Source: a virus (taxonomy: Duplodnaviria; Caudoviricetes). From it: DNA of 64,000 nt. Under the pieces are notes generated by a model. The model searched no databases. It was not told where the DNA came from and saw only the letters and a list, made by a program, of their open reading frames with translations. The translations under genes and the position numbers were made by a program. This document shows, piece after piece, positions 27,851 through 63,418 of this stretch (position 1 is its first letter; each line of letters opens with the position of its first letter). The stretch is from IMG/VR virus record IMGVR_UViG_3300033177_000258. The stretch is one strand, 5' to 3'.

Positions 27851-28335
27851 TGCCGCGCGGCAGGATGAAGCAGAAGACCAAGGACGAACTCAGAGAAGAG
27901 CTGCGGCTGGCGAAGGAGCGAGAGGCCGCGCTTCGTGACGAGTTGGCCGCCCTGCGCGAGGGCGTCTTGGGCGCCGCGTCGGATGCTCCCATCGTTGTTG
28001 TCGTGGGGCTGAGCGAGACCTTCGAGCCATTCATGGAAGCTGTCCGCCCCGTGCCGGTTCCCGCGTTCGCTATGGATGCTATGGCGGCGCATCTATCCCG
28101 CATGTCTGCCGCGTCATCGCACCGCGAGGTGGATGATGTCGGCCCCAGGGTCACCCAGACTGAAACCCACATCCGCGAGCTCTACAAGCGTATTGGCGAA
28201 TTGTCCGAAGTCCAGCAGAAGACGATGGAGTCGCTGGGGGGTTTGTCGGCCCTGATTAGGAGCATCGTGGATGGCAGGGAGCTGGGCATCTTCGGTGGAG
28301 AGGAGCAGCAAACGTCAACTACTGTTGGGCCCTAA
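27850..28335 (+). CDS. Coiled-coil hypothetical protein, 3' end runs into cassette E2
   Basis: Coupled ORF. Confidence 0.6.
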   Translation: MPRGRMKQKTKDELREELRLAKEREAALRDELAALREGVLGAASDAPIVVVVGLSETFEPFMEAVRPVPVPAFAMDAMAAHLSRMSAASSHREVDDVGPRVTQTETHIRELYKRIGELSEVQQKTMESLGGLSALIRSIVDGRELGIFGGEEQQTSTTVGP

Positions 28336-28627
28336 AAACCCGCAGCTCGCAGCTAGCGAAACAACCGCCGCCGCGTATGGCTGATTGACTGCAGCCCTGC
28401 GGCCAATTTCGACCGCAGCGAAGTGGTCGGCTGGCCCAGCGAGACCGCACGACACACAGAGAAACTGGTCGCGAGTAGGACGGCTCTCCTTCGCGACATG
28501 GCCGCACCCAGGACAAGTACGGCTGGTGTTCCTGGGGTCTTCCTTGACAAACGGCACACCAGACAGGGCGGCCTTGTATTCCACTGATAACGGAGCATTG
28601 ACAGTAAATGAGCGAAAAAGGTTATGC
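28298..28627 (-). ncRNA. Cassette E2: tnpB-less omega-RNA unit (E1/E4/E6 family) with putative guide at 28313-28298
   Basis: About 265 bp matching the tnpB 3' end, ending AGTAGTTGAC at 28314; 5' leader GCATAACCTTTTTCG...GGAATAC shared with E4. Confidence 0.75.
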
Positions 28628-28676
28628 TTCTTGCCCCACTGCGTCTGAAGTCTCGCGGCATCATGAGGGTAAGATT

Positions 28677-29801
28677 GTGCGTACTGACATCTTAATCCCC
28701 TGCGCCGCATACCACCGCGAGCGCTTCCTCAAGGCTGTGCCCCTGTGGAACGAAGTCGCTCAGAGCAAGCTGGTGGGGCGCATCCTCGTCGTCTGCCAGG
28801 GCTGGTACCCCGTGGAAGACCAGCTCGGCAAAGTGGACGCCCTCATTGACGTTCCATCTGACAAGTGGCAGCCCAGCGTTGCCCGCAACGCCGGCCTCTC
28901 TGCACTCGAATCCGAGCTGGTGCTGTATTGTGACGCGGATGTGGTCATGCTCCCCGACACCGTGCGGGCGCACGTCTACGCACACAAGGGGTCCGAGGAG
29001 CCCAGGCTGACGGCCAACCTGCACAAAGACATCGCCACTGATGCCCCCCTGCCTTTTACTGTCGAGGAATTGGAAGCGTTGAACGTTCCCGACATGTGGC
29101 GCTCGATGCGCGTTGACTGGCGCGTGGCCATACTCGAAGAGTGCCGCTGGCTGGAGTACCCGCCTTCAGTGCCTCTCTGGTCGCTTGGCGGGGGCAGTGG
29201 TATCTGCCTTCCCCGCGAGTGGGCCCAGGCGGTCGGTGGCTGGAACGAAGACTTCCAGGGGTGGGGCTACGAAGACGCCGAGTTCTGGTACCGCTGCCAG
29301 AAGAGCGGCCTCAAGTTCGAGTTCATCAAGCAGTACGCCTACCACCAGCAGCACGAGGTGGACATCCCGCGCCGCATCGCCGACTCGCAGGAAAACTCGC
29401 AGATGTTCACAATCGAGCGCGACAGTTGCAAGGTCACCTACATCGCTGATGCCGTGACGGATGACCTGGCCCAGCTTGTGCTCGACTCCGAGTACAATGC
29501 CGAAGTCATCGGCGCCTTCCCGCTCAACATGGCCAGCCCCATGGGCATCCGCTCCGTCCCGGCCGCTGCCGACCAGCCGGCCGAAGCGTTCCGCGCCTTC
29601 GCGCGCGGTTGGTACCTGTGCGATATGCGGGGCGACCGGCCCGAGCCGTCCAGTTCCGACTGGCACAGTCTCACCCACTGCGGTAGTCACACCGTCCAGC
29701 TAGGCGGGTTGGACTACATCCCCAAGTCTTCAACCGGGTTCGTGCAGCACCGGGTATCTGGAGGAGCTCATAATGTCGAGACAAGTAGCGGTCCTTACTG
29801 A
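28677..29801 (+). CDS. Glycosyltransferase family 2 (GT7C-like C-terminus)
   Basis: ARNAGL, CDADV, GGWNEDFQGWGYED. Confidence 0.88.
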   Translation: MRTDILIPCAAYHRERFLKAVPLWNEVAQSKLVGRILVVCQGWYPVEDQLGKVDALIDVPSDKWQPSVARNAGLSALESELVLYCDADVVMLPDTVRAHVYAHKGSEEPRLTANLHKDIATDAPLPFTVEELEALNVPDMWRSMRVDWRVAILEECRWLEYPPSVPLWSLGGGSGICLPREWAQAVGGWNEDFQGWGYEDAEFWYRCQKSGLKFEFIKQYAYHQQHEVDIPRRIADSQENSQMFTIERDSCKVTYIADAVTDDLAQLVLDSEYNAEVIGAFPLNMASPMGIRSVPAAADQPAEAFRAFARGWYLCDMRGDRPEPSSSDWHSLTHCGSHTVQLGGLDYIPKSSTGFVQHRVSGGAHNVETSSGPY

Positions 29802-29810
29802 CGCTGCCAC

Positions 29811-30998
29811 CTAAGCGGCTTCTTGCTTGCGCGAGCTATGTGCCGGGCGTCCACCGGAACTACCTGCAACCAAGGCCACAGGATACTTGTAGCGGATGAC
29901 GTTGGGCACGTCACAGCCTGGAGCAAGCTCGCCGCGCATACCGATGCAGCGGATGTTGGTAGAGCCTACCACGTCGCGTGGGGCGCCAAAACCGCATTGC
30001 TTGCAGCGGTAGGTCCGCTGGCACTTGTTCCTGGTTCCGCAAACGGGACACGTTTGGGAACTGTACGCCTCGTCTACGGTGATTGCTCCCGCAGTCTTGT
30101 AGTCGAGTTGCGTAATGAGCCTGCGGTTGCAGGCGGTTGAGACTTGTTGGGCAGTCTTTCGAGACATCTTCTGTGCTGCGTCATTGAACGGTTCGCCGAC
30201 GTAGCACTTTGCTCCGGGGAAAGTGTCAACGACCACCCGAGTGGCTTTGTGGGTGATGTCGTTGATGCGGTTCTCCGACTTCTTTAGCAGCTTGTGTTTG
30301 CGGCGCTGGAGCCGGCCGTACTGACGGGAACCCCGGTGGCAATTCGACAGCTTGCTGCGGAGAGTTGCGAGACGTTTGGCGCGCCACTGAACCGTCGCCT
30401 TGGCTTCCCGACCCGAGACGAGTACGGTTTTTTCTCCGTCTGTGGCAGCAAGGAGAGTATTGATGCCGAGGTCAACGCCGATGGTGGAGCCGGTCGGGAT
30501 GGCGGGCTCCTCGCATTGACAAACTAGGATGATTGCACCGTAGGCGAGTCTAGCTTCCATGAGTCGGCCGGGCAGTTCGAATGGGAGACGGACAAATAGG
30601 TAACCAGAATCCCCGTGAGGGAGACGGACACTTCCATTTCTGACCACGGCACCCTGATTGGTGTAGGGGATGTCTCTGAACTCTGGTTTGTGATTGGGGT
30701 AGGATGACCCCAGGCCTCCCCTTCTTTTTGCTGTTGTGGACTTCAGGGCTTCGCAGAACTCGCGGATGATTTCCTGTACTGACTGGCTGTGGAGATTGGG
30801 GTAACGCCCCTTTGCCCACCTTCTCCAGCGCGCCTCAGAAGGCCACTTTAGTTGGCGACGACGGATACGCAGATGGCGCTCCACCAAGTCAGACCATAGG
30901 CGGCCGGAATCGCTTCGGGCAGCCGTAAAGATAGTCCACTCAGAACGAGAGTGCGGGAGCCAGTCGAGTTTTACAGACCTGTAAACTATGGGCATCAC
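29811..30998 (-). CDS. tnpB: TnpB, cassette E3 (second family)
   Basis: GVDLG, YVGEP, RDVVGSTNI, CPVC/CKQC; omega end ...GCAGCGTCA at about 29799. Confidence 0.9.
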   Translation of the reverse strand: MMPIVYRSVKLDWLPHSRSEWTIFTAARSDSGRLWSDLVERHLRIRRRQLKWPSEARWRRWAKGRYPNLHSQSVQEIIREFCEALKSTTAKRRGGLGSSYPNHKPEFRDIPYTNQGAVVRNGSVRLPHGDSGYLFVRLPFELPGRLMEARLAYGAIILVCQCEEPAIPTGSTIGVDLGINTLLAATDGEKTVLVSGREAKATVQWRAKRLATLRSKLSNCHRGSRQYGRLQRRKHKLLKKSENRINDITHKATRVVVDTFPGAKCYVGEPFNDAAQKMSRKTAQQVSTACNRRLITQLDYKTAGAITVDEAYSSQTCPVCGTRNKCQRTYRCKQCGFGAPRDVVGSTNIRCIGMRGELAPGCDVPNVIRYKYPVALVAGSSGGRPAHSSRKQEAA

Positions 30999-31030: not shown

Positions 31031-32080
31031 ATGAGACAGGCAGCCGTATTGACCAGCGTACCCATCCATCTGCTCGGGGAGGGGCAGCGTATCCCGCAGA
31101 TGCTGGGGCGCCTAAGCGAGCTGCCCGGCGTCGAGACGCACGTTGTGGAGACGCACATCTACGTGCCCGGCGCCGGCGCCGTCTACACCGGGGAGAAGGT
31201 CAAGGAGGCTCTCGACACCATCTTGCGTCAGGGCCCCACGGTCATCATCATCGCCCAGCCAGTGGCAGCGGCGCTACCCGCATTGTTGGAAGCGCAGAAG
31301 CGCGGGGCTAAACTGGTGTACGACCGCTTCGAGAGCTGGAAGGACTTCCCCGGCAACGAGACCTGGTACCGCCCCCAGCAAGAGACCGCCATCATTGTGG
31401 CCAGCGATGGCCTGGTCTCGACCTACCGCGACTCGCTCTTCGATTCCTATGACCGCCCCAAGCTGCTGCTGCCGAACGCCGCCAGCGACGCGCCACTGTG
31501 GCCCCAGACACAACTCAAGGGCTCGCGCGGCCGCAGTGTGGCTCTGGCCAGCTCGGCCGTGTACGTGGGGAGCATGGACCCCCGCTACATAGACATGGAC
31601 GCCATGCGCCATGTGGGAGAGGCGCGCCCGAGCGCCTTCTACGGCAAGCCTCCGGGCCAGCGCATCATGGAGGACGGGATGTCGCCGGTGCAGTACGGCG
31701 CCTCGGGCTGGCTGGTGGGTTGGGTGAACCATGTCAACCTGAGCTTCGCGCTCGCCTCCGGCGACGGCAAGTACAATGACCGGCGCAAGGTGGGTTTGCT
31801 CCCGTTCCTCGACATCCCGTTGACCGAGAAGGTCTCCCCCATCAAGTGGTGGGAGTACCTGCTGGCCGGCGTTCGCCCGGTCACCATGCACCTGAGCCAG
31901 GTCGCGGAAATGCCCTTCGGCGTCTACACCGACGACATCAACGCGTTCCTGTACGCGGCCATCACCGCTGCCCCGTTCTCCGATGAGGAAGCTCGCGAGG
32001 CTTCCAACTGGGTGCGCGAACACCACATGTGGGCGCACCGCGCCAAGGTTCTCAACGCCTGGATGGAGGGCTTGCTCTGA
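31031..32080 (+). CDS. GT-B (GT4-like) glycosyltransferase
   Basis: KLVYD, LLPNA, YVGSM, GLLPF...SPIK.WEYL.AG, H.W.HR. Confidence 0.75.
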   Translation: MRQAAVLTSVPIHLLGEGQRIPQMLGRLSELPGVETHVVETHIYVPGAGAVYTGEKVKEALDTILRQGPTVIIIAQPVAAALPALLEAQKRGAKLVYDRFESWKDFPGNETWYRPQQETAIIVASDGLVSTYRDSLFDSYDRPKLLLPNAASDAPLWPQTQLKGSRGRSVALASSAVYVGSMDPRYIDMDAMRHVGEARPSAFYGKPPGQRIMEDGMSPVQYGASGWLVGWVNHVNLSFALASGDGKYNDRRKVGLLPFLDIPLTEKVSPIKWWEYLLAGVRPVTMHLSQVAEMPFGVYTDDINAFLYAAITAAPFSDEEAREASNWVREHHMWAHRAKVLNAWMEGLL

Positions 32081-32922: not shown

Positions 32923-32977
32923 ATGGGCATAACCTTTTTTCGTCAATGTATGTCACAGCATGGAATACTTCATGGTG

Positions 32978-34126
32978 ATGAAGACTACACTCAAGCTGAA
33001 GCTGCTCACAAGCCCGGACCAGCACCAGGCCCTACTCACTACTCTGGAGGTCTTCAATGCCGCCTGTAACTACCTGGCAGAAGTGGCATTCGACAACCAT
33101 ACCGCGAACAAGCTGAAGCTGCAGAAGCTGGCCTACCATGAGACCCGAGAGCGCTTCATGCTCCCGGCCCAACTGGCCGTTCGCGCAATCGCTAAGGTTT
33201 GCGAAGCCTACAAGCGGGACAAGTCAACCCGACCAACCTTCCGGCCGCATGGGGCAGCCATCTACGACCAGCGGGTCCTCTCGTTCAAGGGTCTGGACAC
33301 CGTGTCCATACTCTCCCTCTCCGGCCGGCTCAAGATTCCAATCGTAGTCCACGGTTACGCCCACGACCGAATCACAGCCTACGGCATGCGCGGCCAGGCC
33401 GACCTGCTCTACCAGCGCGGCACGTTCTACCTGTGTGTCGTGGTTGAGCTTCCCGAACCTCCTCCTGGTGAGACTAAGGACTGGCTCGGCGTAGACCTCG
33501 GCATGGTCAACATAGCCACCGACAGCGACGGAGAGAACTTCAGTGGTGCCGAGGTCAACGGCCTCCGTGCCCGGCACAATGCCCTTCGGTCCAAACTCCA
33601 GGGCAAGGGCACGAAGAGCGCCCGTCGTCGTCTCCGTCAACAGAGCGGACGGGAAAACCGCTTCGCCCGAGACGTAAATCACAGAATCTCCAAGAAGCTA
33701 GTCGCGAAAGCCAAAGGCACCGAGCGTGGCATTTCCGTAGAAGACCTGACGGGAATCCGCGAGCGGGTAACGGTTCGCAAGGCACAGCGTCGCGCGCTAC
33801 ATTCTTGGGGCTTCTACCAGTTGGCCTCGTTTGTCGAGTACAAGGCTGCTTTGGCTGGTGTGCCGTTTGTCAAAGTAGACCCCAGGAATACCAGTCGAAC
33901 ATGTCCTTGGTGCGGTCATGTCGCGAAGGCGAACCGTCCTACTCGCGACCAATTCCTCTGTGTGTCGTGCGGTCTCGCTGGGCCGGCCGACCACTTCGCT
34001 GCGGTCGAAATCGGCCGCAGGGCTGCAGTCAATCAGCCGAACGCGGCAGCAGTCATATCGCTAGCTGCGAGCCCTAAGGATTGCAACAGGGTAGTTGACA
34101 AAACCAGCCAAAAACCTTCTGGGTGA
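32978..34126 (+). CDS. tnpB: TnpB, cassette E4 (full length)
   Basis: N-terminal HTH region, GVDLG, SVEDL, ADHF, zinc finger; omega end GTAGTTGAC at 34091-34099. Confidence 0.93.
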   Translation: MKTTLKLKLLTSPDQHQALLTTLEVFNAACNYLAEVAFDNHTANKLKLQKLAYHETRERFMLPAQLAVRAIAKVCEAYKRDKSTRPTFRPHGAAIYDQRVLSFKGLDTVSILSLSGRLKIPIVVHGYAHDRITAYGMRGQADLLYQRGTFYLCVVVELPEPPPGETKDWLGVDLGMVNIATDSDGENFSGAEVNGLRARHNALRSKLQGKGTKSARRRLRQQSGRENRFARDVNHRISKKLVAKAKGTERGISVEDLTGIRERVTVRKAQRRALHSWGFYQLASFVEYKAALAGVPFVKVDPRNTSRTCPWCGHVAKANRPTRDQFLCVSCGLAGPADHFAAVEIGRRAAVNQPNAAAVISLAASPKDCNRVVDKTSQKPSG

Positions 34127-34134
34127 GAACGGTC

Positions 34135-37100
34135 ATGAGTAGTTCGCCGAATCACGGGTTTGTGAACCTGCACGTCCATTCCGAGTACAGCGCGATGGAC
34201 GGCGTAAGTACGTGCAAAGAGTTGGTGAAGCGCGTCGGGGTGCTCGGGCAGACGGCCCTGGCTCTCACGGACCATGACGGTCTGTACGGCGCGGTTGACA
34301 TCTGCGAGAGCGCCTTGGCGAAGGATGTCAAGCCCATCGTTGGTTGCGAACTGCGGTTCGTGCCCGACATCTCCGAGAAGGTGCGGGGCTGGCACATCAC
34401 TGCTCTGGCGCTGACGGAGCAGGGGTACCGCAACCTCTGCGACTTGGTGACGGAAAGCTACCGCCCCAAGAACTTCTTCTACAGCCCCCGCATCCCTCTG
34501 CAGTCGCTTCTGGAACGACAGGAGGGTTTGGCGCTGCTCTCTGGCTGCTGGTTCGGGTACCCGGCCCAGACCTACGAGCAGACCGTCCACGGCGGCCGCG
34601 ACCGGATGGCTCAATTCCAGGAAATCACCAGCGCTCTGCAGTCGGCCTACGGCGAGCGCTTCCTCTTCGAGCTCTTCACTGGCGACTACGCCCATTCTCG
34701 CGAGGCCATCACGTTCCTGCTCGACGCCTCGGCCAAGTGGGGCATCAAGACTGTTGCGACCAACGACTCCCACTTCGCCGCCCCCGAGGACTGGCGCAAG
34801 GCGGAGTTGATACGTCGCATCCGCATGAAGGGCAAGGACGAAGAGGGCAATGCCATGCCCCAGCACCAGTACCTCATGGGTGAGCAGGAAATGCGCACAC
34901 TGCTCCCAGAGGAAGCGGTGGACAACACGGTGATGGTGGCCGGCTGGGCGGAGTACGCCTTGGACCTGGCCATTGACCGAGAGGGCCACGTGCTGCTGGA
35001 CAAAGTGCTGCAGCGCCTGCCGAAGCTGCCTCTGGCTGAGGGACAGACGGAGTGGGGCGCATTCATTGAGGCCATCAAGCAGGGGTGGCAGAAGAGGATG
35101 GGCTACCTCACCGAGGAGCAGCGGCCCATCTACCACGAACGTCTACTGCGGGAAATCGAGGTCTTCAAAGAGACCGGCCTGGCCGGCTATATGCTCATTG
35201 TGGCCGCGATGACCGATTACTGCGCGGAAAACGGCATCCTGCGGGGCCCCGGCCGAGGCTCGGCGTCAGGGTCCCTGTGCTCCTTCCTGCTGGGTATCAC
35301 CGACCTTGACCCCATAGCCTCCGGCTTGTTCTTCGAGCGGTTCCTGGACGCCCGGCGCGCCAGCATGCCAGACATTGATGTGGACTACGACCCGGACGAC
35401 CGGGAGCGTGTGTTCGCCTATCTGCAGCGGACGTATGGTGTTGACCACGTGGCGCGCATCCTGACCTTCCAGCGGTTGGTGGGTAGCAGCGCGGTCAAAG
35501 ACGTGGGCTCCATGATGGGGGTCAGCTACGACGAGCTCAACAAGCTCACTTCGGCCATCGAGGACTTCGATGAACTGGATGTGAGCGAAGGCGCCCCGCC
35601 CTCCGACAAGAACAAGGAGGCGCTCGGGGTCATCGCTCAGAACCCGGACCTCGCAGCGGTGGTGCAGCAGGCCAAGCTGATTTCTGCCGACGAGAAGACC
35701 AAGACCAAAGGGGTCATCCGTCAGGTAGGTGCCCATGCGGCCGGCGTGGTTATCGCCCCCGGCCCGGTGCGCTACCTCTCTCCCACCCAGCTCACCAAGC
35801 GCGATAGCAACCTGGAAGTCTTCCAGTGGGACATGGGCGCAGTAGACAAGATGGGTCTGCTGAAGATTGACGTTCTCAACGTCAGGACCCTCGGCATGGC
35901 GCGCGACATCATCAGCCTGGTCAAGAAGCGGCATGGGGTGGAGCTCGACTGGTACTCTATCCCAGTCGAAGACCCCGCCGCCTACGAAATGGCCGGGCGC
36001 GGTCGCACTACCGCCATCTTCCAGCTTGAGAAGCGCACGGCCCAGGAGCCACTGAAGAAGATTAAGCCCAACTCGCTGTTGGACTTGGCTGTCGTTCTGG
36101 CGCTCAACCGTCCGGGCCCCATGGAGTACATGGAAGAGTACGCCATCTGCAAGAACGACCCGTCGCAGATAACCTACGACCTGCGCGAATGGGAGTCGGT
36201 GCTGGCCGAGACTTACGGCATCATGGTCTACCAGGAGCAGGTCATCCAAGCCCTGCAGGCGCTGGGATTCGACTTCACCGAAGCCGACGACTTCCGCCGA
36301 GGGATGGCCAAGAAGAAGCAGGACCTCATCGAGGCGGCCAAACTCAGGGTCGTGCCCAAGATAATCGAGCGTGGGTACTCCGAAGCTCACGCTGAAGCCG
36401 TCTGGGCGAAGATAGCCAAGTTCGGCGGCTACGCGTTCAACAAAGCGCATGCTGTGGCGTATGGCGCGATTTCCGCCCGCATGCTGTACCTGAAGACCCA
36501 CTACCCTGCGGAGTACATGGCAGCCGCTCTGACCTCCCAGGACAAAGAGGAGTTCTTCACCAGATACATCGAGGAAGTCTCGCGCCTGGGTCTGCGCTTG
36601 CTGCCTCCCGACATCAACGAGGCCAGCGAGAGCTTCACTCCAAGCGACGGCGCTGTGCGGTTCGGTTTCTCTCAGATTTCCCACATCGGCGCCGTCGCCA
36701 AGGCCATAGTGGCGGCCCGCCTGGTCCGCCCCCGAGGATGGCGCGGGCCCGAGCCGGAGAACGGGGTGTACCCGTACCAAGACCCACTAGACTTCTGCCG
36801 GCGCCTGAAAGACCACGGCATGAACCGGCGCCAGTTGGATGCTCTGGTCTGGGCTGGGGCGTTCGACGCCTTCTGCCCTTCGCGGGCTTTCCTGGCCGAC
36901 AAGGTTGACCAACTCATGGGCATGGCGAAAGCCGGCCGCACCTCAGTGGAGGCTTTGGTGACGTGGGAGTCTCTGTTGGCGGACGCGGAACTGCGCCCCG
37001 ATGACGAGGACCTGCTGGCCGACAAGGAGCAGGAGTTGTTGCGCTGCTCGCCGCGTCGCATGGCGCAGGACATCAGTTTGCGTGAGCGCATAGGAAAGGG

Positions 37101-37386
37101 TACCGCGCCCCTGTCCCAGCTCGAACCGCAAGCCAAGGGCGTCAAAGTCTGCGGGCGCATCCTCGAAATCGGTAAGCGCTCTGGCAGGAAGAACGACTAT
37201 GCCTACCTGCAGTTGAACGACGGGACGGCCATCATGCGATGCCTGGCGTTCAAAGAAGAAGTCATCCAGCAGCTATCGGACGAAATAGGTCCTCAGGCAG
37301 CAGTGGTGCTACAGGGAGACGTGAGTGATGACGGGACGGCGTTCTTCATTCGCAAAATAGTGCAGTCTGACGCCGGCGCAAGTTAG
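34135..37386 (+). CDS. dnaE: DNA polymerase III alpha subunit
   Basis: PHP HVHSEYS/TDH/TNDSH, GRGSASGS, MPDIDVD, GLLKID, YAFNKAHA, OB fold. Confidence 0.96.
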   Translation: MSSSPNHGFVNLHVHSEYSAMDGVSTCKELVKRVGVLGQTALALTDHDGLYGAVDICESALAKDVKPIVGCELRFVPDISEKVRGWHITALALTEQGYRNLCDLVTESYRPKNFFYSPRIPLQSLLERQEGLALLSGCWFGYPAQTYEQTVHGGRDRMAQFQEITSALQSAYGERFLFELFTGDYAHSREAITFLLDASAKWGIKTVATNDSHFAAPEDWRKAELIRRIRMKGKDEEGNAMPQHQYLMGEQEMRTLLPEEAVDNTVMVAGWAEYALDLAIDREGHVLLDKVLQRLPKLPLAEGQTEWGAFIEAIKQGWQKRMGYLTEEQRPIYHERLLREIEVFKETGLAGYMLIVAAMTDYCAENGILRGPGRGSASGSLCSFLLGITDLDPIASGLFFERFLDARRASMPDIDVDYDPDDRERVFAYLQRTYGVDHVARILTFQRLVGSSAVKDVGSMMGVSYDELNKLTSAIEDFDELDVSEGAPPSDKNKEALGVIAQNPDLAAVVQQAKLISADEKTKTKGVIRQVGAHAAGVVIAPGPVRYLSPTQLTKRDSNLEVFQWDMGAVDKMGLLKIDVLNVRTLGMARDIISLVKKRHGVELDWYSIPVEDPAAYEMAGRGRTTAIFQLEKRTAQEPLKKIKPNSLLDLAVVLALNRPGPMEYMEEYAICKNDPSQITYDLREWESVLAETYGIMVYQEQVIQALQALGFDFTEADDFRRGMAKKKQDLIEAAKLRVVPKIIERGYSEAHAEAVWAKIAKFGGYAFNKAHAVAYGAISARMLYLKTHYPAEYMAAALTSQDKEEFFTRYIEEVSRLGLRLLPPDINEASESFTPSDGAVRFGFSQISHIGAVAKAIVAARLVRPRGWRGPEPENGVYPYQDPLDFCRRLKDHGMNRRQLDALVWAGAFDAFCPSRAFLADKVDQLMGMAKAGRTSVEALVTWESLLADAELRPDDEDLLADKEQELLRCSPRRMAQDISLRERIGKGTAPLSQLEPQAKGVKVCGRILEIGKRSGRKNDYAYLQLNDGTAIMRCLAFKEEVIQQLSDEIGPQAAVVLQGDVSDDGTAFFIRKIVQSDAGAS

Positions 37387-37445: not shown

Positions 37446-38555
37446 ATGCAACGCACTCTCTACATCCAATTGGTAGTTTCCCCCGAACAAGGCAGAGCCA
37501 TCGGCGTCACGATGGCTCTGTATACGGCTTGCTTCAACGCGGCCACTCGGTTCGGTTGGGACAACCATACGGTAAATGGAGTGGAGCTACATAAGGGCAC
37601 CTATGCTACCCTTCGCGCCCAGTACCCCGAGCTTCCCTCCCAACTTGTCTGCTCTTCTCGCGTCAAAGCGACAGAGTCACTCAAGTCAGTCCGCGCCCGT
37701 CTCGCCAAGGGCAAGAAAGCATCCTGCCCGCTCTCCCGTCTTCAGTCGGTACGCTACGACGCCCGTTCCTACACCATTTCCCTCACCGAAGGCTGGGCCA
37801 CTCTCGCCACGGTCGCCGGCCGTCAGCGCGTCACATTCGACGCCGGCTTCACCAGGCTCCAGACCTGGAAGCCCACCTCGGCCGAACTCGTCTACCGTCG
37901 CAACCAGTTCTGGCTCCACGTCGTTGTAGAGTCCCCCGCCCCCGTCTACACCGCAACCGGCGAGGTTGTCGGTGTAGACTTGGGCATTGTCCGCCCGGCC
38001 GTCACCTCCGAAGCCCAGTTCTTCGGTGAGCGGCGCTGGCGCAACGTCGAACAGCGGTACTTCCGTCTTCGCAGAGCCTTGCAGGCAAAGGCCACTCGCT
38101 CCGCCCGTCGTAAGCTACGTAAGCTCTCGGGCAAGCAGGCTAGGTTTCGCCGCGACTGCGACCACGTACTGTCCCGCCGCCTTGTAGAGTCCGTTGACCC
38201 AGGAGCCGTACTCGTCTTCGAGAACCTGACTGGAATCCGTGACCGCGCTGACTTCGGCCGGCATGGCAACCGTCGTCTCCACGGGTGGAGCTTCGCCCAA
38301 CTGTTCGCGTTCACGGCCTACAAAGCCGAGGAAGGCGGCAAGACGACGGCGACGGTAGACCCGCGCGGGACGAGCCAGAAATGCTCGCGGTGCGGACACG
38401 TCGCGCGGGGCAACCGCGTCAGCCAGTCAGAGTTCCGGTGCCAGAAGTGCGGCTTTCGAATCAACGCTGACCTCAACGCGGGACGAAACGTGAAGGGGAA
38501 GTACCTGGTCCGAGAGGGCAGCGCCGTCTCGGGCGGGCCGCGTCAACCGGCCTAA
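37446..38555 (+). CDS. tnpB: TnpB, cassette E5 (third family, full length)
   Basis: GVDLG, VFENL, NADLNAGRNV, CSRC/CQKC; omega end GTAGTTGAA at 38595-38603. Confidence 0.93.
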   Translation: MQRTLYIQLVVSPEQGRAIGVTMALYTACFNAATRFGWDNHTVNGVELHKGTYATLRAQYPELPSQLVCSSRVKATESLKSVRARLAKGKKASCPLSRLQSVRYDARSYTISLTEGWATLATVAGRQRVTFDAGFTRLQTWKPTSAELVYRRNQFWLHVVVESPAPVYTATGEVVGVDLGIVRPAVTSEAQFFGERRWRNVEQRYFRLRRALQAKATRSARRKLRKLSGKQARFRRDCDHVLSRRLVESVDPGAVLVFENLTGIRDRADFGRHGNRRLHGWSFAQLFAFTAYKAEEGGKTTATVDPRGTSQKCSRCGHVARGNRVSQSEFRCQKCGFRINADLNAGRNVKGKYLVREGSAVSGGPRQPA

Positions 38556-38632
38556 TGCAGCGTGTTGTTTGCGGCTGCAAGCTACCTTTGGGTAGTAGTT
38601 GAATCGTAAGATTGTCACATTGAGGAGCTGGT

Positions 38633-39346
38633 ATGCGTCTTTCTATCCTAACTCCAACAATCAGGGGTAGCCGCTGCGATGCGCTCTCTCGGGTAGTTGG
38701 CGACCTGCGCCAACATTGGGATGTGACTTGGTGGCTCTGCCCCAATGCTCCTGGATGGGACGCCCGGCCGCCGCTGTTTGCTCGGGTTGTGCCCCTGGTG
38801 TTCTCTGGCCCGGTGCCGGTTCTCTCTCGCATCAACCAGGCGCGCGAACTGCTGAGGGTAGCGGCATCGTCGTGGCCGGCCGACGTGGTTGTGTGGCTGG
38901 ACGATGACATGACACCCACGACCGAGCAGCTACACCAGCTTGCGTCCACGGCCATCCGTTCCGATACGCGAGGGCTTCTCGTCTCGCCTGTGATGCGGAA
39001 CCGACATAGCACCGATGACTACACCTGTGCCTGGGTCTTCACCCAGACTGCCGTGGAAGTTCGTGGAGCGGACCTGGACTTGTCCATCCACGGCCTGTCT
39101 TTCCTCCCGTCATCCGTATCCCGTGAAGATAGGGGATTCGTATGGGCCCACGGAGTGGGACTCGGTTGTGTCGCTCACCCCTGGGCCTTCTTGCTTGAGT
39201 TCGCCTTCCCTGCCGCCGAGGTGGCTGACGACGAGTGGTTGTCGCGCGCGTTCGCTGCGAGCGGGCGCACTGGCATCATTGTTGACTACACGCTTGACGT
39301 GGGGCACATTGATGCAGATAAGGAGCACTCATGCCCAGAAGTCTAA
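38633..39346 (+). CDS. GT-A-like glycosyltransferase
   Basis: WLDDDM, GVGLGC, DD, paralogous to 32080. Confidence 0.65.
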   Translation: MRLSILTPTIRGSRCDALSRVVGDLRQHWDVTWWLCPNAPGWDARPPLFARVVPLVFSGPVPVLSRINQARELLRVAASSWPADVVVWLDDDMTPTTEQLHQLASTAIRSDTRGLLVSPVMRNRHSTDDYTCAWVFTQTAVEVRGADLDLSIHGLSFLPSSVSREDRGFVWAHGVGLGCVAHPWAFLLEFAFPAAEVADDEWLSRAFAASGRTGIIVDYTLDVGHIDADKEHSCPEV

Positions 39347-52921: not shown

Positions 52922-53914
52922 TCACAGGCAACTCGCAGCTAGCCCAAGTACAGCAGCCGCCGCGTATGGCTGATTGACTGCAGCCCTGCGGCCGATTTCG
53001 ACCGCAGCGAAGTGGTCGGCTGGCCCAGCGAGACCGCACGACACACAGAGGAATTGGTCGCGAGTAGGACGGTTCGCCTTCGCGACATGACCGCACCCAG
53101 GACATGTTCGACTGGTATTCCTGGGGTCTACCTTGACAAACGGCACACCAGCCAAAGCAGCCTTGTACTCTACAAACGAGGCCAACTGGTAGAAGCCCCT
53201 GGAGACTTCATGGTTGACGTGGCGCCCGAAACGACTCTCCCGTCCGCTCTGTTGCTTCAGCCGGCGCGTGGCCGACCTTGTGCCTTTGCTCTGGAGCCTG
53301 GCTCGCAATGACGCATGACGGCGGCGCAAGCCGTTGACTTCGGCCCCGCTGAAGTTCTCGCCGTCGCTGTCGGTAGTTATGTTGACGACACCCATGTCTA
53401 CGCCGAGCCAATCCTTGGGTTGCTTTTGCGGGGGTTCGGGAATGTCAACGACTACGCAGAGGTAGAATTGCCCATCACGGAGCACGAGGTCGGCTTGGCC
53501 TCTGACCCCGTAAGCGGTAATCCGCTCATGGGCATAGCCATATACGACGACCGGCATCTTGAGCCGTCCCGAGACCGACAAGATAGACACGGTATCAAGC
53601 CCTTTGAACGAGAGGTTGCGTTGGTCGTATACCACTGAGCCCCGCGCTCTGAAAGTCGGTTGCTTCTTCTTGTCGCGCTTGTAGACTTCGCAGACCTTGG
53701 CAATGGCGCGAACAGCCAACTGGGCGGGTAGAGAGAACCGCTCTCGGGCCCCCTGGTAAGTAAGACGGTGTACGACATTGCGGTTGGCGGAGCCGTTCTC
53801 ATAGGCTACGCTGGAAATCCAATTACACGCCGTATTGAACGACTCCATGGTATCAACCAGGGCGTGGTGCTGGTCGGAGGAAGGCGCGAGTTTGAGCTGC
53901 AGTGTGGTGTTCAT
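52922..53914 (-). pseudogene. tnpB: TnpB cassette E6 with in-frame deletion of RuvC-II and no TTGAC end
   Basis: Relative to E4, 39 aa including VEDL are replaced by one residue (VNHEVSRGFYQ). Confidence 0.85.
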
Positions 53915-58564: not shown

Positions 58565-59185
58565 ATGCAGTACAGCGGCACCCCCATCATGGCCCTGGAG
58601 GCCCCGAGCCAAGAGCGCCTGATTGAGGCGTTCTGGTCATCCGGCTTGTGTGCGCTTCAGGTGGTGAACCCGAAAGTCTTTGCGCGCCCTTTGCCGGCGC
58701 AAGAGGGCGAGCACAACGCCGTGCACGACGCCGCGTCGGCGGCCCTGCGGTCCAGCACATTGTCTCGCTACGTCGCGCTGGACATGACCCATAACGTAGA
58801 GCCGGAGACGATGGCGGCTGCCGTCGCGCTTTGCATGGTCACGCAGGCCGAGCTCCTCGTGGTCTCCGAGTACGGCCACTTCCCCATGCTCTTCCGGCAA
58901 CTGCTGCAGGTGAATGAAGTCGCCGACGCCGACGCACTCATTGCACTCGCTGGTCAGCTACTAGGTAAGGACCACGAAGAGCGACGCATGAACATCCCCC
59001 TGATGGCGACGCTCTCCCTGCCGGTTGAGGGCGCGGGCGGCGTATCGCTCGGGGACGCGGACAAGGTGATGGAGCTCCTGCGTCTCGCGTTCAACAACGC
59101 GGCGAACATCAAGCCGGCCCCGGACCACATCATCATCCACGCCATGGCCAGTGTGGTCATGCCGAAACCCCTGTTGGAGGGCTAA
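58565..59185 (+). CDS. Hypothetical protein
   Basis: ORF in operon. Confidence 0.6.
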   Translation: MQYSGTPIMALEAPSQERLIEAFWSSGLCALQVVNPKVFARPLPAQEGEHNAVHDAASAALRSSTLSRYVALDMTHNVEPETMAAAVALCMVTQAELLVVSEYGHFPMLFRQLLQVNEVADADALIALAGQLLGKDHEERRMNIPLMATLSLPVEGAGGVSLGDADKVMELLRLAFNNAANIKPAPDHIIIHAMASVVMPKPLLEG

Positions 59186-59186
59186 C

Positions 59187-60014
59187 ATGGAACTGCACGT
59201 CTTTGGCACCCAAGAAACCATCCACCTCTCGTACAGCGAGATTCCGTGGGATGTAGACACGAAGCAGCGCACCGACCTGGACCCCGGCACCGGCGAACCC
59301 ATGATGGAGTTCGTGCTCGACGCCGATGGCAAGATGAAGCGAGACGAAAACCTCAACCCGCTGATGCGGGCGGCGGACGGTAGCGAAGTCCCGGTGAAGA
59401 CCGACGTGTGGGTCGAGAACCGCGCTTTCACCGTCCCCTTCGGCCCCTGCTGCATCAACCAGGAAGTCAAGCAGACGCAGTACGCCGACCGCCCCGACGT
59501 GCAGGTCTGTCGCGGCACCTGCTGCCGCCAGCCGGTCTCAGTGAAGGTTAGCACCATCGCGGCCATCCTCAAGCACATGGATGGCATCCTCAAGCACATG
59601 CCCCCGGCGAACGCGAAGCTGGCTTCGCTGGCGAGCCCGTTCCGCCACGAGTCCATCCGCCCGATGCCCGATGGCTCCTGTATCTTCTGGAACCCGGTCA
59701 ACGGCCAGTGCGCGCTGTACAACTACGCCCAGGCCAACGGCCTGGATGTGAACCGCCTGCGGCCCATCCCATGCTCGCTGTTCCCCCTGCAGATTCAGGC
59801 CGGCTGGCTCGACCAGACCCCGCGCTACTTCGCGATGTTCATTGACCCCATCGTGATGCAGCAGCACAACATCGCCTGCCCCACGGCCGGCAATGGTGCC
59901 TGCAAGCCGGCGTACCTGAGCCTGAAGCGCGAGTTCGACACCGCCTTCGGGGAAGGCTTCTGGGAGGTCATGGTAGACGTGTATGAGCGGCACTTCAGAC
60001 CAAAGCACGAGTAG
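59187..60014 (+). CDS. Cys-cluster protein (DUF3109/YkgJ-like)
   Basis: C.GTCC, CIF, CAL, RP..CSLFP, FG..F. Confidence 0.6.
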   Translation: MELHVFGTQETIHLSYSEIPWDVDTKQRTDLDPGTGEPMMEFVLDADGKMKRDENLNPLMRAADGSEVPVKTDVWVENRAFTVPFGPCCINQEVKQTQYADRPDVQVCRGTCCRQPVSVKVSTIAAILKHMDGILKHMPPANAKLASLASPFRHESIRPMPDGSCIFWNPVNGQCALYNYAQANGLDVNRLRPIPCSLFPLQIQAGWLDQTPRYFAMFIDPIVMQQHNIACPTAGNGACKPAYLSLKREFDTAFGEGFWEVMVDVYERHFRPKHE

Positions 60015-60041
60015 GCTCACGGCGCTTTTCAGGTATATTCC

Positions 60042-60323
60042 GCAAGACGACGGCGACGGTAGACCCGCGCGGGACGAGTCAGAAGTGCTCGCGGTGTGGG
60101 CACGTTGCGCGGGGCAACCGCGTCAGCCAGTCAGAGTTCCAGTGCCAGAAGTGCGGCTTTCGAATCAACGCTGACCTCAACGCGGGACGGAATGTGAAGG
60201 GGAAGTACCTGGTCCGAGAGGGCAGCGCCGTCTCGGGCGGGCCGCGTCAACCGGCCTAATGCAGCGTGTTGTTTGCGGCTGCAAGCTGCCTTCGGGTAGT
60301 GGTTGACGGTGGATGTTTACTAC
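60042..60323 (+). ncRNA. Cassette E7: tnpB-less omega-RNA unit (E5 family) with guide from 60308
   Basis: 266 bp nearly identical to 38338-38603, ends TTGAC at 60307; TATATT immediately upstream. Confidence 0.8.
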
Positions 60324-60345
60324 TATTGGCTTTGTGTAGAACGTA

Positions 60346-60783
60346 ATGTTCACAACGGGAATATCCCAATTGTTGGCTACCGCTAGCGAACGCGTGTCCA
60401 CGCCCGAGGGTCTGTTCGCGGCTCTTGGGCGCCTGGAGACGTTCATCGTGGAGCTCTCAGAGTCGCTGAGCGAGAGCAAACCCGAGCACGCCGTCGCCGC
60501 CGCGTTTCTTTCGGACGATGACATCGTGTCGGCTGTCCGCAGTATGTGCGCCGAGTATCTTCTCTCGGCCTGGTTCATGGGCAGCCTCAACGAAGCCATC
60601 AAGTCCAACTCGATTCCGTCGCAGCGCTTCACACCAGACGCCATTGTGAAAGCCATGACCAAGTTGCAGCGTATGGCCAAGCCGGTGGGCGAGACGGGAG
60701 CGAAGGTCGAGCAAGCCCTGGAAGCACTCATGCCCGCAGAAGGCACCGCAGCACCAGTTGCACTATCCGAGAAAGGATTGTAG
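60346..60783 (+). CDS. Hypothetical protein
   Basis: ORF in operon. Confidence 0.55.
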   Translation: MFTTGISQLLATASERVSTPEGLFAALGRLETFIVELSESLSESKPEHAVAAAFLSDDDIVSAVRSMCAEYLLSAWFMGSLNEAIKSNSIPSQRFTPDAIVKAMTKLQRMAKPVGETGAKVEQALEALMPAEGTAAPVALSEKGL

Positions 60784-60799
60784 CCAGAGAGGAATCGCA

Positions 60800-63418
60800 A
60801 TGTCAAACAAAGTGGATAAGAGCCCGGTCGTCAGCACGTCTGTCCGTAGTCTCGCTGCCGCCATCGGCGTCAAGGAGCTGGATGTCTCGATTGCCAAGAT
60901 GGCGTTCGTGCAGGGCATGAAGCGCGAGCAGATTTCCACCGCGCTCGGGCTCAGTTTCCGCAACGTGCAGGCCCGTCTGCACACGTTCGCGCAGTTCCAT
61001 AAGGCGGCCGACATGCCCCCCGTGGACGCCGTTGATGCGCTGATGGGAATGCACGACGACGACCTTGAGTACACCCCGCCTGCCGAGCGCTACCGCAAGC
61101 GGCTTCAGGCGCAGGCACAGGCCATTGCCCGCCTGCACGAGTCGCTCAACAAGCGACAGGTTGTCATTGACAACGTGGTCGCGGCCCTCGTCGCCGAGCT
61201 GGGCACCTACGACCCGTCTCCCTATACGCCCATCCCGATGGAGGGCCGCAAGGGCCGGCCCGAGTACGCCATGCTGGAGCTCAGCGACTGGCAGTTCGGG
61301 TCGAACTGGACTGGCGAAGACGTGGCCGGTCTGAACGAAATGAGCACCACCATCCTGGAGCAGCGCGTCGAACTGCTGACCCAGCGCGTGCTCCACCTCA
61401 TTGACCTGCAGCGCTCCGCCGTGAACATCCCATGGCTGGTCATCAACGCCCTGGGCGACTTCATCGAGAACGAAATCATCTGGGAGAGCCAGGGCACGTA
61501 CATTGATATGAACGCCTCCGACCAGATGATGGCGTGCCTAGAGTCCATGGAGAAGATGATGGTGACGTTCCTCCAGCACGGCGGCTTCGAGGAAATTAGG
61601 ATGTACTGTTTCCCCGCTGGCACGCCGGTCCTAATGGGCGACCTCAAGCAGAAGCCCATCGAGGATGTGTCGGTAGGGGATGAGGTCATCACGCACACGG
61701 GAGCGAGGAGAAAGGTTACTCGCACCGGCTCCCGTATTGCTGGTTCGGTCGTATCCATCGAAGCGGAGGGTTTGCCCAAGGCCATCAATGCGACTCCCGA
61801 GCACCCATTCTTCGCCATAAAGGGCGACGGGGTGGTTTGTGCTCGCTACCCATCTTTCCAGAAGATGGGACGACGTTGTTGGCTACAAGAGCGCGACGTA
61901 GAGCACCACCCATGTTGCAGTTGCAATTCCAGACCCAATCCCAAGGCGGAGTGGGTGAAAGCGGCCGACCTCGTAGAGGGGGATTACTTGCTGGTTCCCA
62001 CTACGTCGGGCTTGGTGGACAACCCGACCCCAATTGGCCCTGACCACGATGCCTTCTCTGGGTGTGTTGTGCGGCGATACGGAGAGAGGTTTTCGGTTAG
62101 CAACTCGGAGCGCGCAGCCATGCAGGAACGTATGGGTGAGGTCAAGTCCATGCTGCCATTCGAGTTCTCTCCCCGCAATATGCGCATACTTGGTTTGTGG
62201 GTGGCAGAGGGTAGTGTGGGGGGTCCGACTGAGGGACAGCCCAATTCGCTCAGCTTCTCGTTCGGGGCGCATGAGGCGGAAACGCTGGCGCGCGATGTCG
62301 TTGAGTGGGCGCGGGATATGGGGGTGTCTAATGAAGACATCCGGCAGAACCTCCAAAATGAGAATAAATCTGCATTGGTAGTTACCCTGAACAACACGAT
62401 GCTAGCCCGTCTCTTTGTCTACCTGGCCGGGAAGGGGGCAGCGGAGAAGAGCCTCCATTCGTCGCTGCTGATGATGGACCCATCGCTCCAACGGGAGCTG
62501 CTGATGGGCATGTGTGACGGCGACGGGACACGCTATGAGAAGGGGGCTTGTAGGGGTGCGCATCTGCGCTACTACACAGTATCGTCTTCACTGGCTGAAG
62601 ACGCCAGGAGATTGGCTCTTCGCTGTGGTTTCCTGACATCTAATCAGGTGAGTGAGAGAGGAGACGGTCGTCTGCCCCAGCATTCCGTATGCCTCTCCCA
62701 CCCGGATATCCCAGGTTCGGGGGACGGGAACGCGGGGAGGACGAAGCGTTGGGGAGGGTACATCGCGTTGCCCATCAGACAGATAACGGCGGAGACCGCC
62801 GAGACTGTGGTATACAACCTGGAAGTCGAGATTGACCACTCGTATGTGGCAGGAGATGCTGCTGTTCACAACTGCGTGGCAGGTAACCACGGCAGAATGG
62901 GAAAGAAACCAAACTCTATGCACTGGAAGAACAACTGGGACTTCCTGCTGTACCGCTTCCTGGCGCGCCGCTTCAAGAACGAGCCCCGCGTCAAGTTCAT
63001 CATCGGCACGTCGCCCTGGCTCGCCTACCGGCTGCCGCAGGCCCCGCGCTGGAACCACGTCATCCTGCACGGAGACACCATCCCGAACAACCTGGGCATC
63101 CCGTACTACGGCATCAACCGCGAGGTCGCCAAGATGGCAACCCTGACGAACATGCCGGTGCACCTGGTCCACCTCGGCCACTTCCACCAGCCGTCCATCC
63201 TGGACAACACCTACGGCGCCAAAATCATCAACGGCTGTCTCACCGGCGCCTCGCCGTTCTCAGTGGGCAAGTTGCTGATGGGTGGCCTGCCGCAGCAGTT
63301 GCTGTTCGGCGTTCACCCGGAACACGGGCGCACCTGGAACTACCCGGTGCTGCTCGCCAACATGCCGGAAGTCACTGCCGATGACGAAGGCGTCTACTCG
63401 TCCTACGTCGAGGAGTAG
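60800..63418 (+). CDS. Calcineurin-like metallophosphoesterase/nuclease with N-terminal HTH, interrupted by an intein
   Basis: SDWQ.G, LGDFIE, GNHGR, HGD, GHFH. Confidence 0.85.
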   Translation: MSNKVDKSPVVSTSVRSLAAAIGVKELDVSIAKMAFVQGMKREQISTALGLSFRNVQARLHTFAQFHKAADMPPVDAVDALMGMHDDDLEYTPPAERYRKRLQAQAQAIARLHESLNKRQVVIDNVVAALVAELGTYDPSPYTPIPMEGRKGRPEYAMLELSDWQFGSNWTGEDVAGLNEMSTTILEQRVELLTQRVLHLIDLQRSAVNIPWLVINALGDFIENEIIWESQGTYIDMNASDQMMACLESMEKMMVTFLQHGGFEEIRMYCFPAGTPVLMGDLKQKPIEDVSVGDEVITHTGARRKVTRTGSRIAGSVVSIEAEGLPKAINATPEHPFFAIKGDGVVCARYPSFQKMGRRCWLQERDVEHHPCCSCNSRPNPKAEWVKAADLVEGDYLLVPTTSGLVDNPTPIGPDHDAFSGCVVRRYGERFSVSNSERAAMQERMGEVKSMLPFEFSPRNMRILGLWVAEGSVGGPTEGQPNSLSFSFGAHEAETLARDVVEWARDMGVSNEDIRQNLQNENKSALVVTLNNTMLARLFVYLAGKGAAEKSLHSSLLMMDPSLQRELLMGMCDGDGTRYEKGACRGAHLRYYTVSSSLAEDARRLALRCGFLTSNQVSERGDGRLPQHSVCLSHPDIPGSGDGNAGRTKRWGGYIALPIRQITAETAETVVYNLEVEIDHSYVAGDAAVHNCVAGNHGRMGKKPNSMHWKNNWDFLLYRFLARRFKNEPRVKFIIGTSPWLAYRLPQAPRWNHVILHGDTIPNNLGIPYYGINREVAKMATLTNMPVHLVHLGHFHQPSILDNTYGAKIINGCLTGASPFSVGKLLMGGLPQQLLFGVHPEHGRTWNYPVLLANMPEVTADDEGVYSSYVEE
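61607..62872 (+). mobile_element. Intein (422 aa) with LAGLIDADG homing endonuclease
   Basis: Starts CFPAGT, ATPEHPF, LGLWVAEG and LMGMCDGDG, ends VHN, +1 Cys. Confidence 0.93.

Follow-up and report, generated by a model that had tools for sequence, protein, structure and literature searches.

A non-autonomous TnpB/omega-RNA unit between two phage genes is probably a disarmed homing cassette

In the IS200/IS605 elements ISDra2 and ISGst (the latter from Geobacillus), the omega-RNA scaffold overlaps the 3′ end of tnpB and the guide lies just outside the right end. Homing of these elements involves a TTCAT-type TAM of 4–5 nt and an effective guide of about 12 nt, and an empty site consists of the TAM followed by the guide sequence. 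TnpB is reported to be highly sensitive to changes in the TAM. Only the last 116 nt of the 231-nt ISDra2 scaffold are required, and a heteroduplex of about 12 bp suffices for TnpB cleavage (PMC10097598). PATEs are protein-less derivatives of IS200/IS605 elements; their omega-RNAs are believed to rely on a TnpB supplied in trans (Meers et al. 2023, 10.1101/2023.03.14.532601), and a protein-less omega-RNA served in trans is thus already known as a concept. In T-even phages, free-standing homing endonucleases (Seg, Mob) are responsible for intronless homing and marker exclusion (PMC13565253). According to the same 2026 review, the spread of TnpB by cutting of the orthologous empty site in co-infecting phages is theoretical (PMC13565253).

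The locus described here lies in a 64,000-nt stretch of viral DNA (hereafter the window; IMG/VR record IMGVR_UViG_3300033177_000258) with a GC content of 61.7% and long ORFs nearly all on the + strand. The window encodes a PolIII-alpha-type polymerase (34123–37386), a UvsX-like recombinase, a UDG-HD protein and an exonuclease-like gene that bears an intein. Its sequence is also present on metagenome contigs of 195–215 kb, and the source is most likely a large phage. Samples with this phage are JGI 3300033174 and 3300033178, SRR10872647 and SRR27197515.

A tblastn search with the TnpB of the cassette E5 as the query revealed seven tnpB-related stretches in the 64 kb. Three of them, at 56–754, 32960–34126 and 52922–53914 (minus strand), belong to class-2. 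The others are a cassette at 29811–30998 (minus strand), a fragment at 28426–28578 (minus strand) within a unit that we call Ef, a fragment at 60044–60256 within the unit under study (E7) and E5 itself. E5 (37446–38603, + strand) consists of an intact tnpB, which extends to 38555, and the scaffold, and it encodes the only intact TnpB of the window that is accompanied by an E7-type scaffold. The protein matches the Pfam families OrfB_IS605 and Cas12f1-like_TNB; its GVDLG, FENL and NADLNA motifs, which provide the RuvC D-E-D triad, and both CxxC pairs of the zinc finger align to solved Cas12f/TnpB proteins. The motif GGAATACTTC occurs in the window 12 times at up to 1 mismatch (1.7 expected). 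It stands upstream of all 4 full-length tnpB genes that start inside the window and of 3 other transcription units (9920, 16822(-), 31001(-), 32962, 37395, 45995 and 53921(-)). It includes a -10-like AATACT and is probably a phage promoter element.

E7 is situated between two genes, X and Y. A BLAST comparison of the region with the window aligned positions 60042–60306 with positions 38338–38602 of E5 (265 bp, 95.8% identity, E = 2e-122). The copied segment carries the last 71 codons of tnpB, with the zinc finger and RuvC-III, and the stop codon (60044–60259, + strand), followed by a noncoding scaffold tail of 48 nt. These codons (299–369) have no start codon and are out of frame with X, and the TnpB frame of E7 contains no ORF of at least 50 aa. 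At the amino-acid level they are 98.6% identical to E5, with a single residue changed, and 7 of the 8 substitutions are synonymous. The scaffold ends with GTTGAC (60302–60307). The first base after it opens the guide core GGTGGATGTTTAC (60308–60320), which would read V-D-V-Y. The same four residues are encoded by the resident 13-mer GGTAGACGTGTAT in gene X (59972–59984), and its 5′ side abuts a TAM-like TCAT (59968–59971; GTCAT is 59967–59971). The two 13-mers are mismatched at positions 4, 7, 10 and 13 only. Re-reading of the sequence bore out the positions and letters of the resident, the guide and GTCAT that had been given in an earlier note on this DNA, as well as its description of E7 as a protein-less unit with an E5-type scaffold and with the same TCAT motif and mismatch register as E5.

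To the left of the copied segment lies a remnant of the left end (60015–60043), which ends with TATTCCG and is shared with a full-length element in a sister strain (contig L006, described below); GC at 60042–60043 is a microhomology at the deletion junction. The earlier note saw a TATATT box here. The letters are indeed present (60034–60039), but no + strand promoter was called at E7, this box included, and in the full-length sister element this hexamer belongs to the left arm of an inverted repeat with 7-bp arms (TATTCCG-N19-CGGAATA). The analysis detected no + strand terminator from X to Y either, so read-through transcription is possible. A near-consensus antisense promoter of the sigma-70 type (60777–60806 (-), TTGACA-18-TACAAT, 11/12) is directed across Y to E7.

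Gene X (59151–60014, + strand, probable start at 59187) is DUF3109-like, as judged from a weak Pfam match. Its homologues P0001–P0003 have the C-terminal end VMVDVYERHF(R/K)P, and two further clusters of homologues were found. In a relative with 73% identity (L001/L002), the X/Y junction contains no insert. The tail of X reads there GTAAT GGTGGATGTTTAC GAGCGCC, and Y begins at an ATG within it, which makes X and Y overlap. The E7 guide is thus identical at 13/13 positions to a site in L001 (8786–8798) and in L002, preceded by TAAT and not TCAT. These cassette-free relatives carry the guide 13-mer itself, and the resident of the carrier has four mismatches to it, three of them within the first 12 nt.

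In the window this overlap has been split into three: a functional tail of X, E7 with a 38-nt relic, and a separate head of Y. The functional resident tail, VDVYERHFRPKHE, takes up the last 43 nt of X (59972–60014, + strand) and has its homologue in the tail of L001. What is left of the old X-tail/Y-head overlap, the relic, covers 60308–60345 (+ strand) and contains a mini-ORF (60313–60339, MFTTIGFV*); the ATG of the relic opens MFTT, Y begins with MFTTGISQ and the Y of L001 with MFTS. From base 14 onwards, no significant similarity at the nucleotide level was found between the relic and L001, the resident tail or the head of Y. Y itself (60346–60783, + strand, 145 aa) no longer overlaps X and is 68% identical to the L001 gene that starts within the tail of X.

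The relic suggests another reading, namely that the retained segment serves the expression of Y and not a guide. The relic would be the old start context, its upstream ORF ends 6 nt before Y, and deletions into it would be harmful. In accordance with this, the relic opens with the first residues of Y and stops just before that gene, no obvious independent ribosome-binding site precedes Y, and the relic beside E5 also holds GAGGAG and the ATG of the next ORF. However, such a role accounts for the 38-nt relic and not for 265 nt of scaffold, and it is compatible with the other readings. We regard it as improbable as the explanation of E7.

It is worth stressing that the 9/13 match between resident and guide is ordinary by itself. 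Dot-matching of upstream against downstream flanks at the nucleotide level did not single out the resident/guide pairs, as matches of 9–11/13 are common. What goes beyond chance is the placement of the two 13-mers, one after the scaffold and the other after TCAT, together with the exact 13-mer at the homologous site of L001/L002. The X genes of L001 and the window are 67.5% identical (39.6% at wobble positions); of the 813 13-mers aligned between the two, no more than 6 (0.7%) are identical.

The same comparison bears on the idea that the neighbouring target had been recoded. The resident is a diverged copy and the guide is the L001/L002 allele, but directed recoding is not needed: among 81 conserved four-codon windows, 11 differ between the window phage and L001 at all four wobble positions. 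The change of the resident is therefore compatible with ordinary divergence after the constraint of the overlap had been lifted, and equally compatible with selection against self-cutting. As a separate observation, GTAAT in L001 (8781–8785) and GTCAT in the carrier differ by a synonymous GTA/GTC change, and GTAAT of this naive allele could be a TAM-escape variant.

E5 has the same layout. Its resident TCGCAAAATAGTG (37350–37362, after TTCAT at 37345–37349) and guide TCGTAAGATTGTC (38604–38616) both encode R-K-I-V and, like those of E7, differ solely at positions 4, 7, 10 and 13. In the naive contig L011 there is no insert after the PolIII gene, whose tail reads TTCAT TCGCAAGGTTGTC... and ends ...GGGGTAG; the E5 guide is identical to this site, which follows TTCAT, at 11/13 positions. 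The guide and the relic of the old PolIII tail cover 38604–38670 (+ strand). The final 26 nt of the relic match the end of the L011 tail at 21/26 positions, a score reached by 0 of 2000 shuffles. The DNA on the 3′ side of E5 is thus the displaced old tail of the PolIII gene, and the current tail is a replacement. Compared with the L011 tail, the relic has about 27 extra nt (38617–38643), which hold GAGGAG and the ATG (38633) of the next ORF; the displaced tail appears to be re-used as a translation start region.

The remaining cassettes offer some further observations. Behind the minus-strand cassette at 29811–30998 lies, in reverse complement, a gene start that has been orphaned (29779–29798), GGAGGAG...ATG TCG AGA CAA GTA GCG GTC, and the real gene restarts at 31031 (31031–31054) with ATG AGA CAG GCA GCC GTA. 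Judging from these letters, the old end again serves as a putative guide with the replacement end on the far side, here at the 5′ end of a gene. L011 has no insert between its Anp1-like gene and PolIII (1240–1360), the place where the window has tnpB 32960–34126, and this junction looks like a third empty site. The left flank of that tnpB (32925–32945) holds GCATAACCTTTTTTCGTCA, which nearly matches, in reverse complement, the beginning of gene 28608 (28608–28630) next to Ef. When they moved, the cassettes seem to have taken along host sequence from their flanks.

Scans of IMG/VR for TAM plus guide returned 12 and 18 matches, which we ascribe to chance: none of them encodes X, PolIII, Y or TnpB, and all but two lie in AT-rich contigs (GC 0.31–0.47).

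The origin of E7 became apparent from a sister strain. Across the 2.7 kb on the left of the site, contig L006 (sample SRR27197515) agrees with the window at about 99.5% of positions, and the identity is complete through the stop codon of X and GCTCACGGCGCTTTTCAGGTATATTCCG. There follow CGCACAGCC...CGGAATACTTCC and the start of a tnpB; its product and E5 TnpB have 74.6% amino-acid identity, and the contig ends within the gene. Contig L009 from the same sample begins in the scaffold end and has the same guide and relic with one difference. As the left junction, the guide and the relic are all shared, E7 is an internal deletion of the full-length tnpB cassette present in the L006/L009 strain. The deletion is recent, because the flanks of the two strains differ only by about 0.5–1%. 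Judging from the length of E5, some 0.9–1 kb was lost, including the promoter-like motif GGAATACTTC and the first ~298 codons of tnpB. The guide GGTGGATGTTTAC was also found in L007, L008, L009 and L010. Three of these contigs (L007, L008 and L010), from three further samples, contain the deleted form and are 100% identical to the window, so they represent the same strain and E7 is a single-site unit. Beyond the near-identical 2.7 kb on the left, the sister strain is far more diverged. This pattern is suggestive of spread by cutting and repair, but it is also what ordinary phage mosaicism looks like.

The phage GenBank collection gave no match to E7 DNA or to the X protein, and IMG/VR contained neither a relative of X nor a copy of the scaffold. 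A scaffold pattern scan of JGI metagenomes produced 0 matches in a collection without the scaffold-bearing samples (L007 is a JGI contig).

The earlier note took E7 for a second guide loaded in trans onto E5 TnpB. By these data E7 was not made for this purpose; it is a recent deletion of a cassette that is still full-length in a sister strain. They raise the question of whether E7 is simply dead, that is, a decaying fragment of a tnpB cassette with an RNA that is neither processed nor loaded, which is inactive and will be lost. A recent internal deletion of the microhomology type, the absence of the promoter motif, a second solo fragment (Ef) with a similar microhomology deletion and the lack of any sign of selection since the event are all what one would expect of such a remnant. 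As the deletion is recent, little can be concluded about selection from the fact that the RNA part is still there.

The state of the scaffold speaks against this reading. Its core (60173–60307, + strand) consists of four hairpins that are also present in E5 and in the two closest relatives, L043 and L044 (64% protein identity). We aligned the scaffolds of these four elements, and the last ~105 nt form the four hairpins with covarying stems. The scaffold overlaps the 3′ end of tnpB and stops at the right end. In E7 and L044, the terminal GUUGAC can pair with GUCAAC located 62 nt upstream, in the loop of the second hairpin; L043 has GCUGAC/GUCAGC at this pairing, a compensatory double change. 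E7 retains the four hairpins and the terminal pairing, and no change specific to E7 breaks a stem: compared with E5, an A-U pair in a stem became G-U, one loop base and one linker base changed, and the last base completes the terminal pairing. Folded as a single sequence, the 286-nt unit was no better than shuffles (z about -1). An Rfam scan of the window matched 0 families, the E7 scaffold included, and aligning scaffolds across classes proved not meaningful. The possibility that the E7 scaffold is a simple recombinant of E5 and L009 was rejected, as the shared sites are interleaved and agree with a star of three lineages in which the branch of E7 is short.

For a dead remnant, then, E7 has preserved a good deal: the scaffold and guide carry no disabling change, its branch is the shortest among E5, E7 and L009 (last 50 nt), a compatible intact TnpB (E5) is encoded 22 kb away, and both E7 (265 nt) and Ef (271 nt) retain nearly the whole conserved 3′ module. 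We therefore consider that E7 is possibly dead, yet rather unlikely to be so.

The reading that we prefer is that E7 is a non-autonomous, internally deleted TnpB/omega-RNA cassette between two phage genes, and the combination of guide, naive allele and full-length sister makes it a probable disarmed homing cassette. When phages co-infect a cell, the family would spread from one to the other through an RNA-guided cut in the naive allele and its recombinational repair, a transposon homing that would resemble intronless homing, while the mismatched resident tail would shield the genome of the carrier. The retained 265 nt and the 13-nt guide core of E7 fit the requirements of ISDra2 for 116 nt of scaffold and a heteroduplex of about 12 bp, and the resident mismatches 4, 7 and 10 fall in this critical region. 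RNA of E7 may still be produced by read-through from X, and E5 TnpB, whose own scaffold is 96% identical, may load it. E7 would in this case be a passenger guide that is served in trans and owes its existence to decay, not to a design for multiplexing. Such loading is plausible, although on balance we lean slightly against it. The activity of E7 is made less likely by the deletion of the promoter-like motif, and service by E5 may be hampered by the N-terminal half of its TnpB, which differs by about 25% from that of the original TnpB of the site. A further weak point is that in the only naive E7 allele found, TAAT instead of TCAT precedes the target and no more than 13 nt match.

A second solo unit, Ef, invites a comparison. 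Ef (28314–28584, minus strand, 271 nt) is a protein-less tnpB 3′ module which ends with GTAGTTGAC and has about 90% identity to the corresponding 3′ parts of the class-2 tnpB at 56–754, 32960–34126 and 52922–53914. Its order is canonical: TCAT, left end, scaffold and a guide that lies antisense to gene 28608 at its ribosome-binding region. On the left, Ef has the junction GGAATAC|AAGG where tnpB has GAGTAC, and this indicates that a deletion from the promoter motif into tnpB, with GA(A/G)TAC as the microhomology, gave rise to Ef. In two class-2 paralogues (Eb, 33807–34099, and Ec, 52928–53199), the last 268 nt are 94% identical and the rest about 70%, with a sharp boundary; this points to exchange of the guide-RNA module, or to its gene conversion, between paralogous tnpB genes. 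E7 and Ef both keep almost exactly this conserved 3′ module. Two independent solo units that do so (n=2) may reflect selection or a boundary prone to recombination.

On these grounds one could argue that protein-less guides were selected, with one TnpB serving dispersed guides, as a CRISPR-like step for homing or against competing phages. In each of the two scaffold classes, an intact nuclease is accompanied by one solo 3′ module of ~270 nt, and 3′ modules that are 94% alike among paralogues, against ~70% elsewhere, would favour cross-loading. But the solo state is young, as the sister strain has the full gene at the E7 site with flanks ~99% identical; the breakpoints resemble microhomology accidents; and the solo units are not arrayed, have no acquisition machinery and have lost the promoter. 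Unlike a CRISPR array, the scaffolds of E7, E5 and Ef are dispersed single units, with neither a tandem repeat-spacer array nor an adaptation module. Evolved multiplexing is thus very unlikely, and the proto-CRISPR-like role once proposed for E7 finds no support here.

We return to the disarmed homing cassette and to how it relates to known systems. The cassettes of this phage share the scaffold position, the TAM type, the effective guide length and the empty site with IS200/IS605 elements. They differ in having, as read, no TnpA and no left-end hairpin: no subterminal hairpin was found in the left ends of E5 or E7, only 59 nt separate the PolIII stop from the start of E5 tnpB, and the scan of the window for tnpA was not exhaustive. 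In the relative L043, TTCAT borders a left end that bears a hairpin with 11-nt arms. Further differences are the host, a large phage that looks virulent, the position of the element between a replacement gene end and the displaced old end, and, for E7 itself, the missing nuclease gene. Like PATEs, E7 is protein-less and appears to keep an omega-RNA and a guide whose nuclease would be encoded elsewhere. PATEs, however, have both transposon ends and are moved by TnpA, whereas E7 is a one-off deletion at a single, fixed site, with no TnpA-type ends and no left-end hairpin seen.

The similarity to Seg and Mob endonucleases lies in the location between conserved phage genes, in a target within the cognate gene of cassette-free relatives and in substitutions that distinguish the carrier. 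In contrast to them, recognition would proceed via an RNA guide carried as a DNA copy of the target, and the nuclease of E7 is encoded at another locus. Some integrative elements, tRNA-gene integrating islands among them, bring along a replacement 3′ end of the gene they enter. The order in such islands (5′ part of the gene, replacement end, element, displaced original end) is that of our cassettes, which have no integrase or att-site crossover.

More tentatively, the cassettes of this phage may represent TnpA-less TnpB that works as an RNA-guided system for intronless homing or for cutting competitors. Each would have the old gene end as its guide (the first ~12–13 nt being needed) and a diverged replacement end that keeps the gene both working and immune, and those without a nuclease, such as E7, would be active via the homogenised scaffold of a paralogue. 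This wider pattern, in which each TnpB cassette sits between a replacement gene end and the old end that equals its guide, is of more interest than E7 alone. It shows a route by which insertion into the end of an essential gene can be tolerated, the replacement end standing beside the displaced one. Moreover, the locus is a natural set of four states: naive (L001/L002), full-length (L006/L009), nuclease-less (the window) and a paralogous intact nuclease (E5). With these, use of the omega-RNA in trans and self-immunity by target divergence are directly testable.

A further insertion is found downstream of Y. In the exonuclease-like gene (60758–63418), which in L001 has a 449-aa homologue without an intein, an intein of about 1.3 kb with Hint and LAGLIDADG matches occupies positions 61562–62874.
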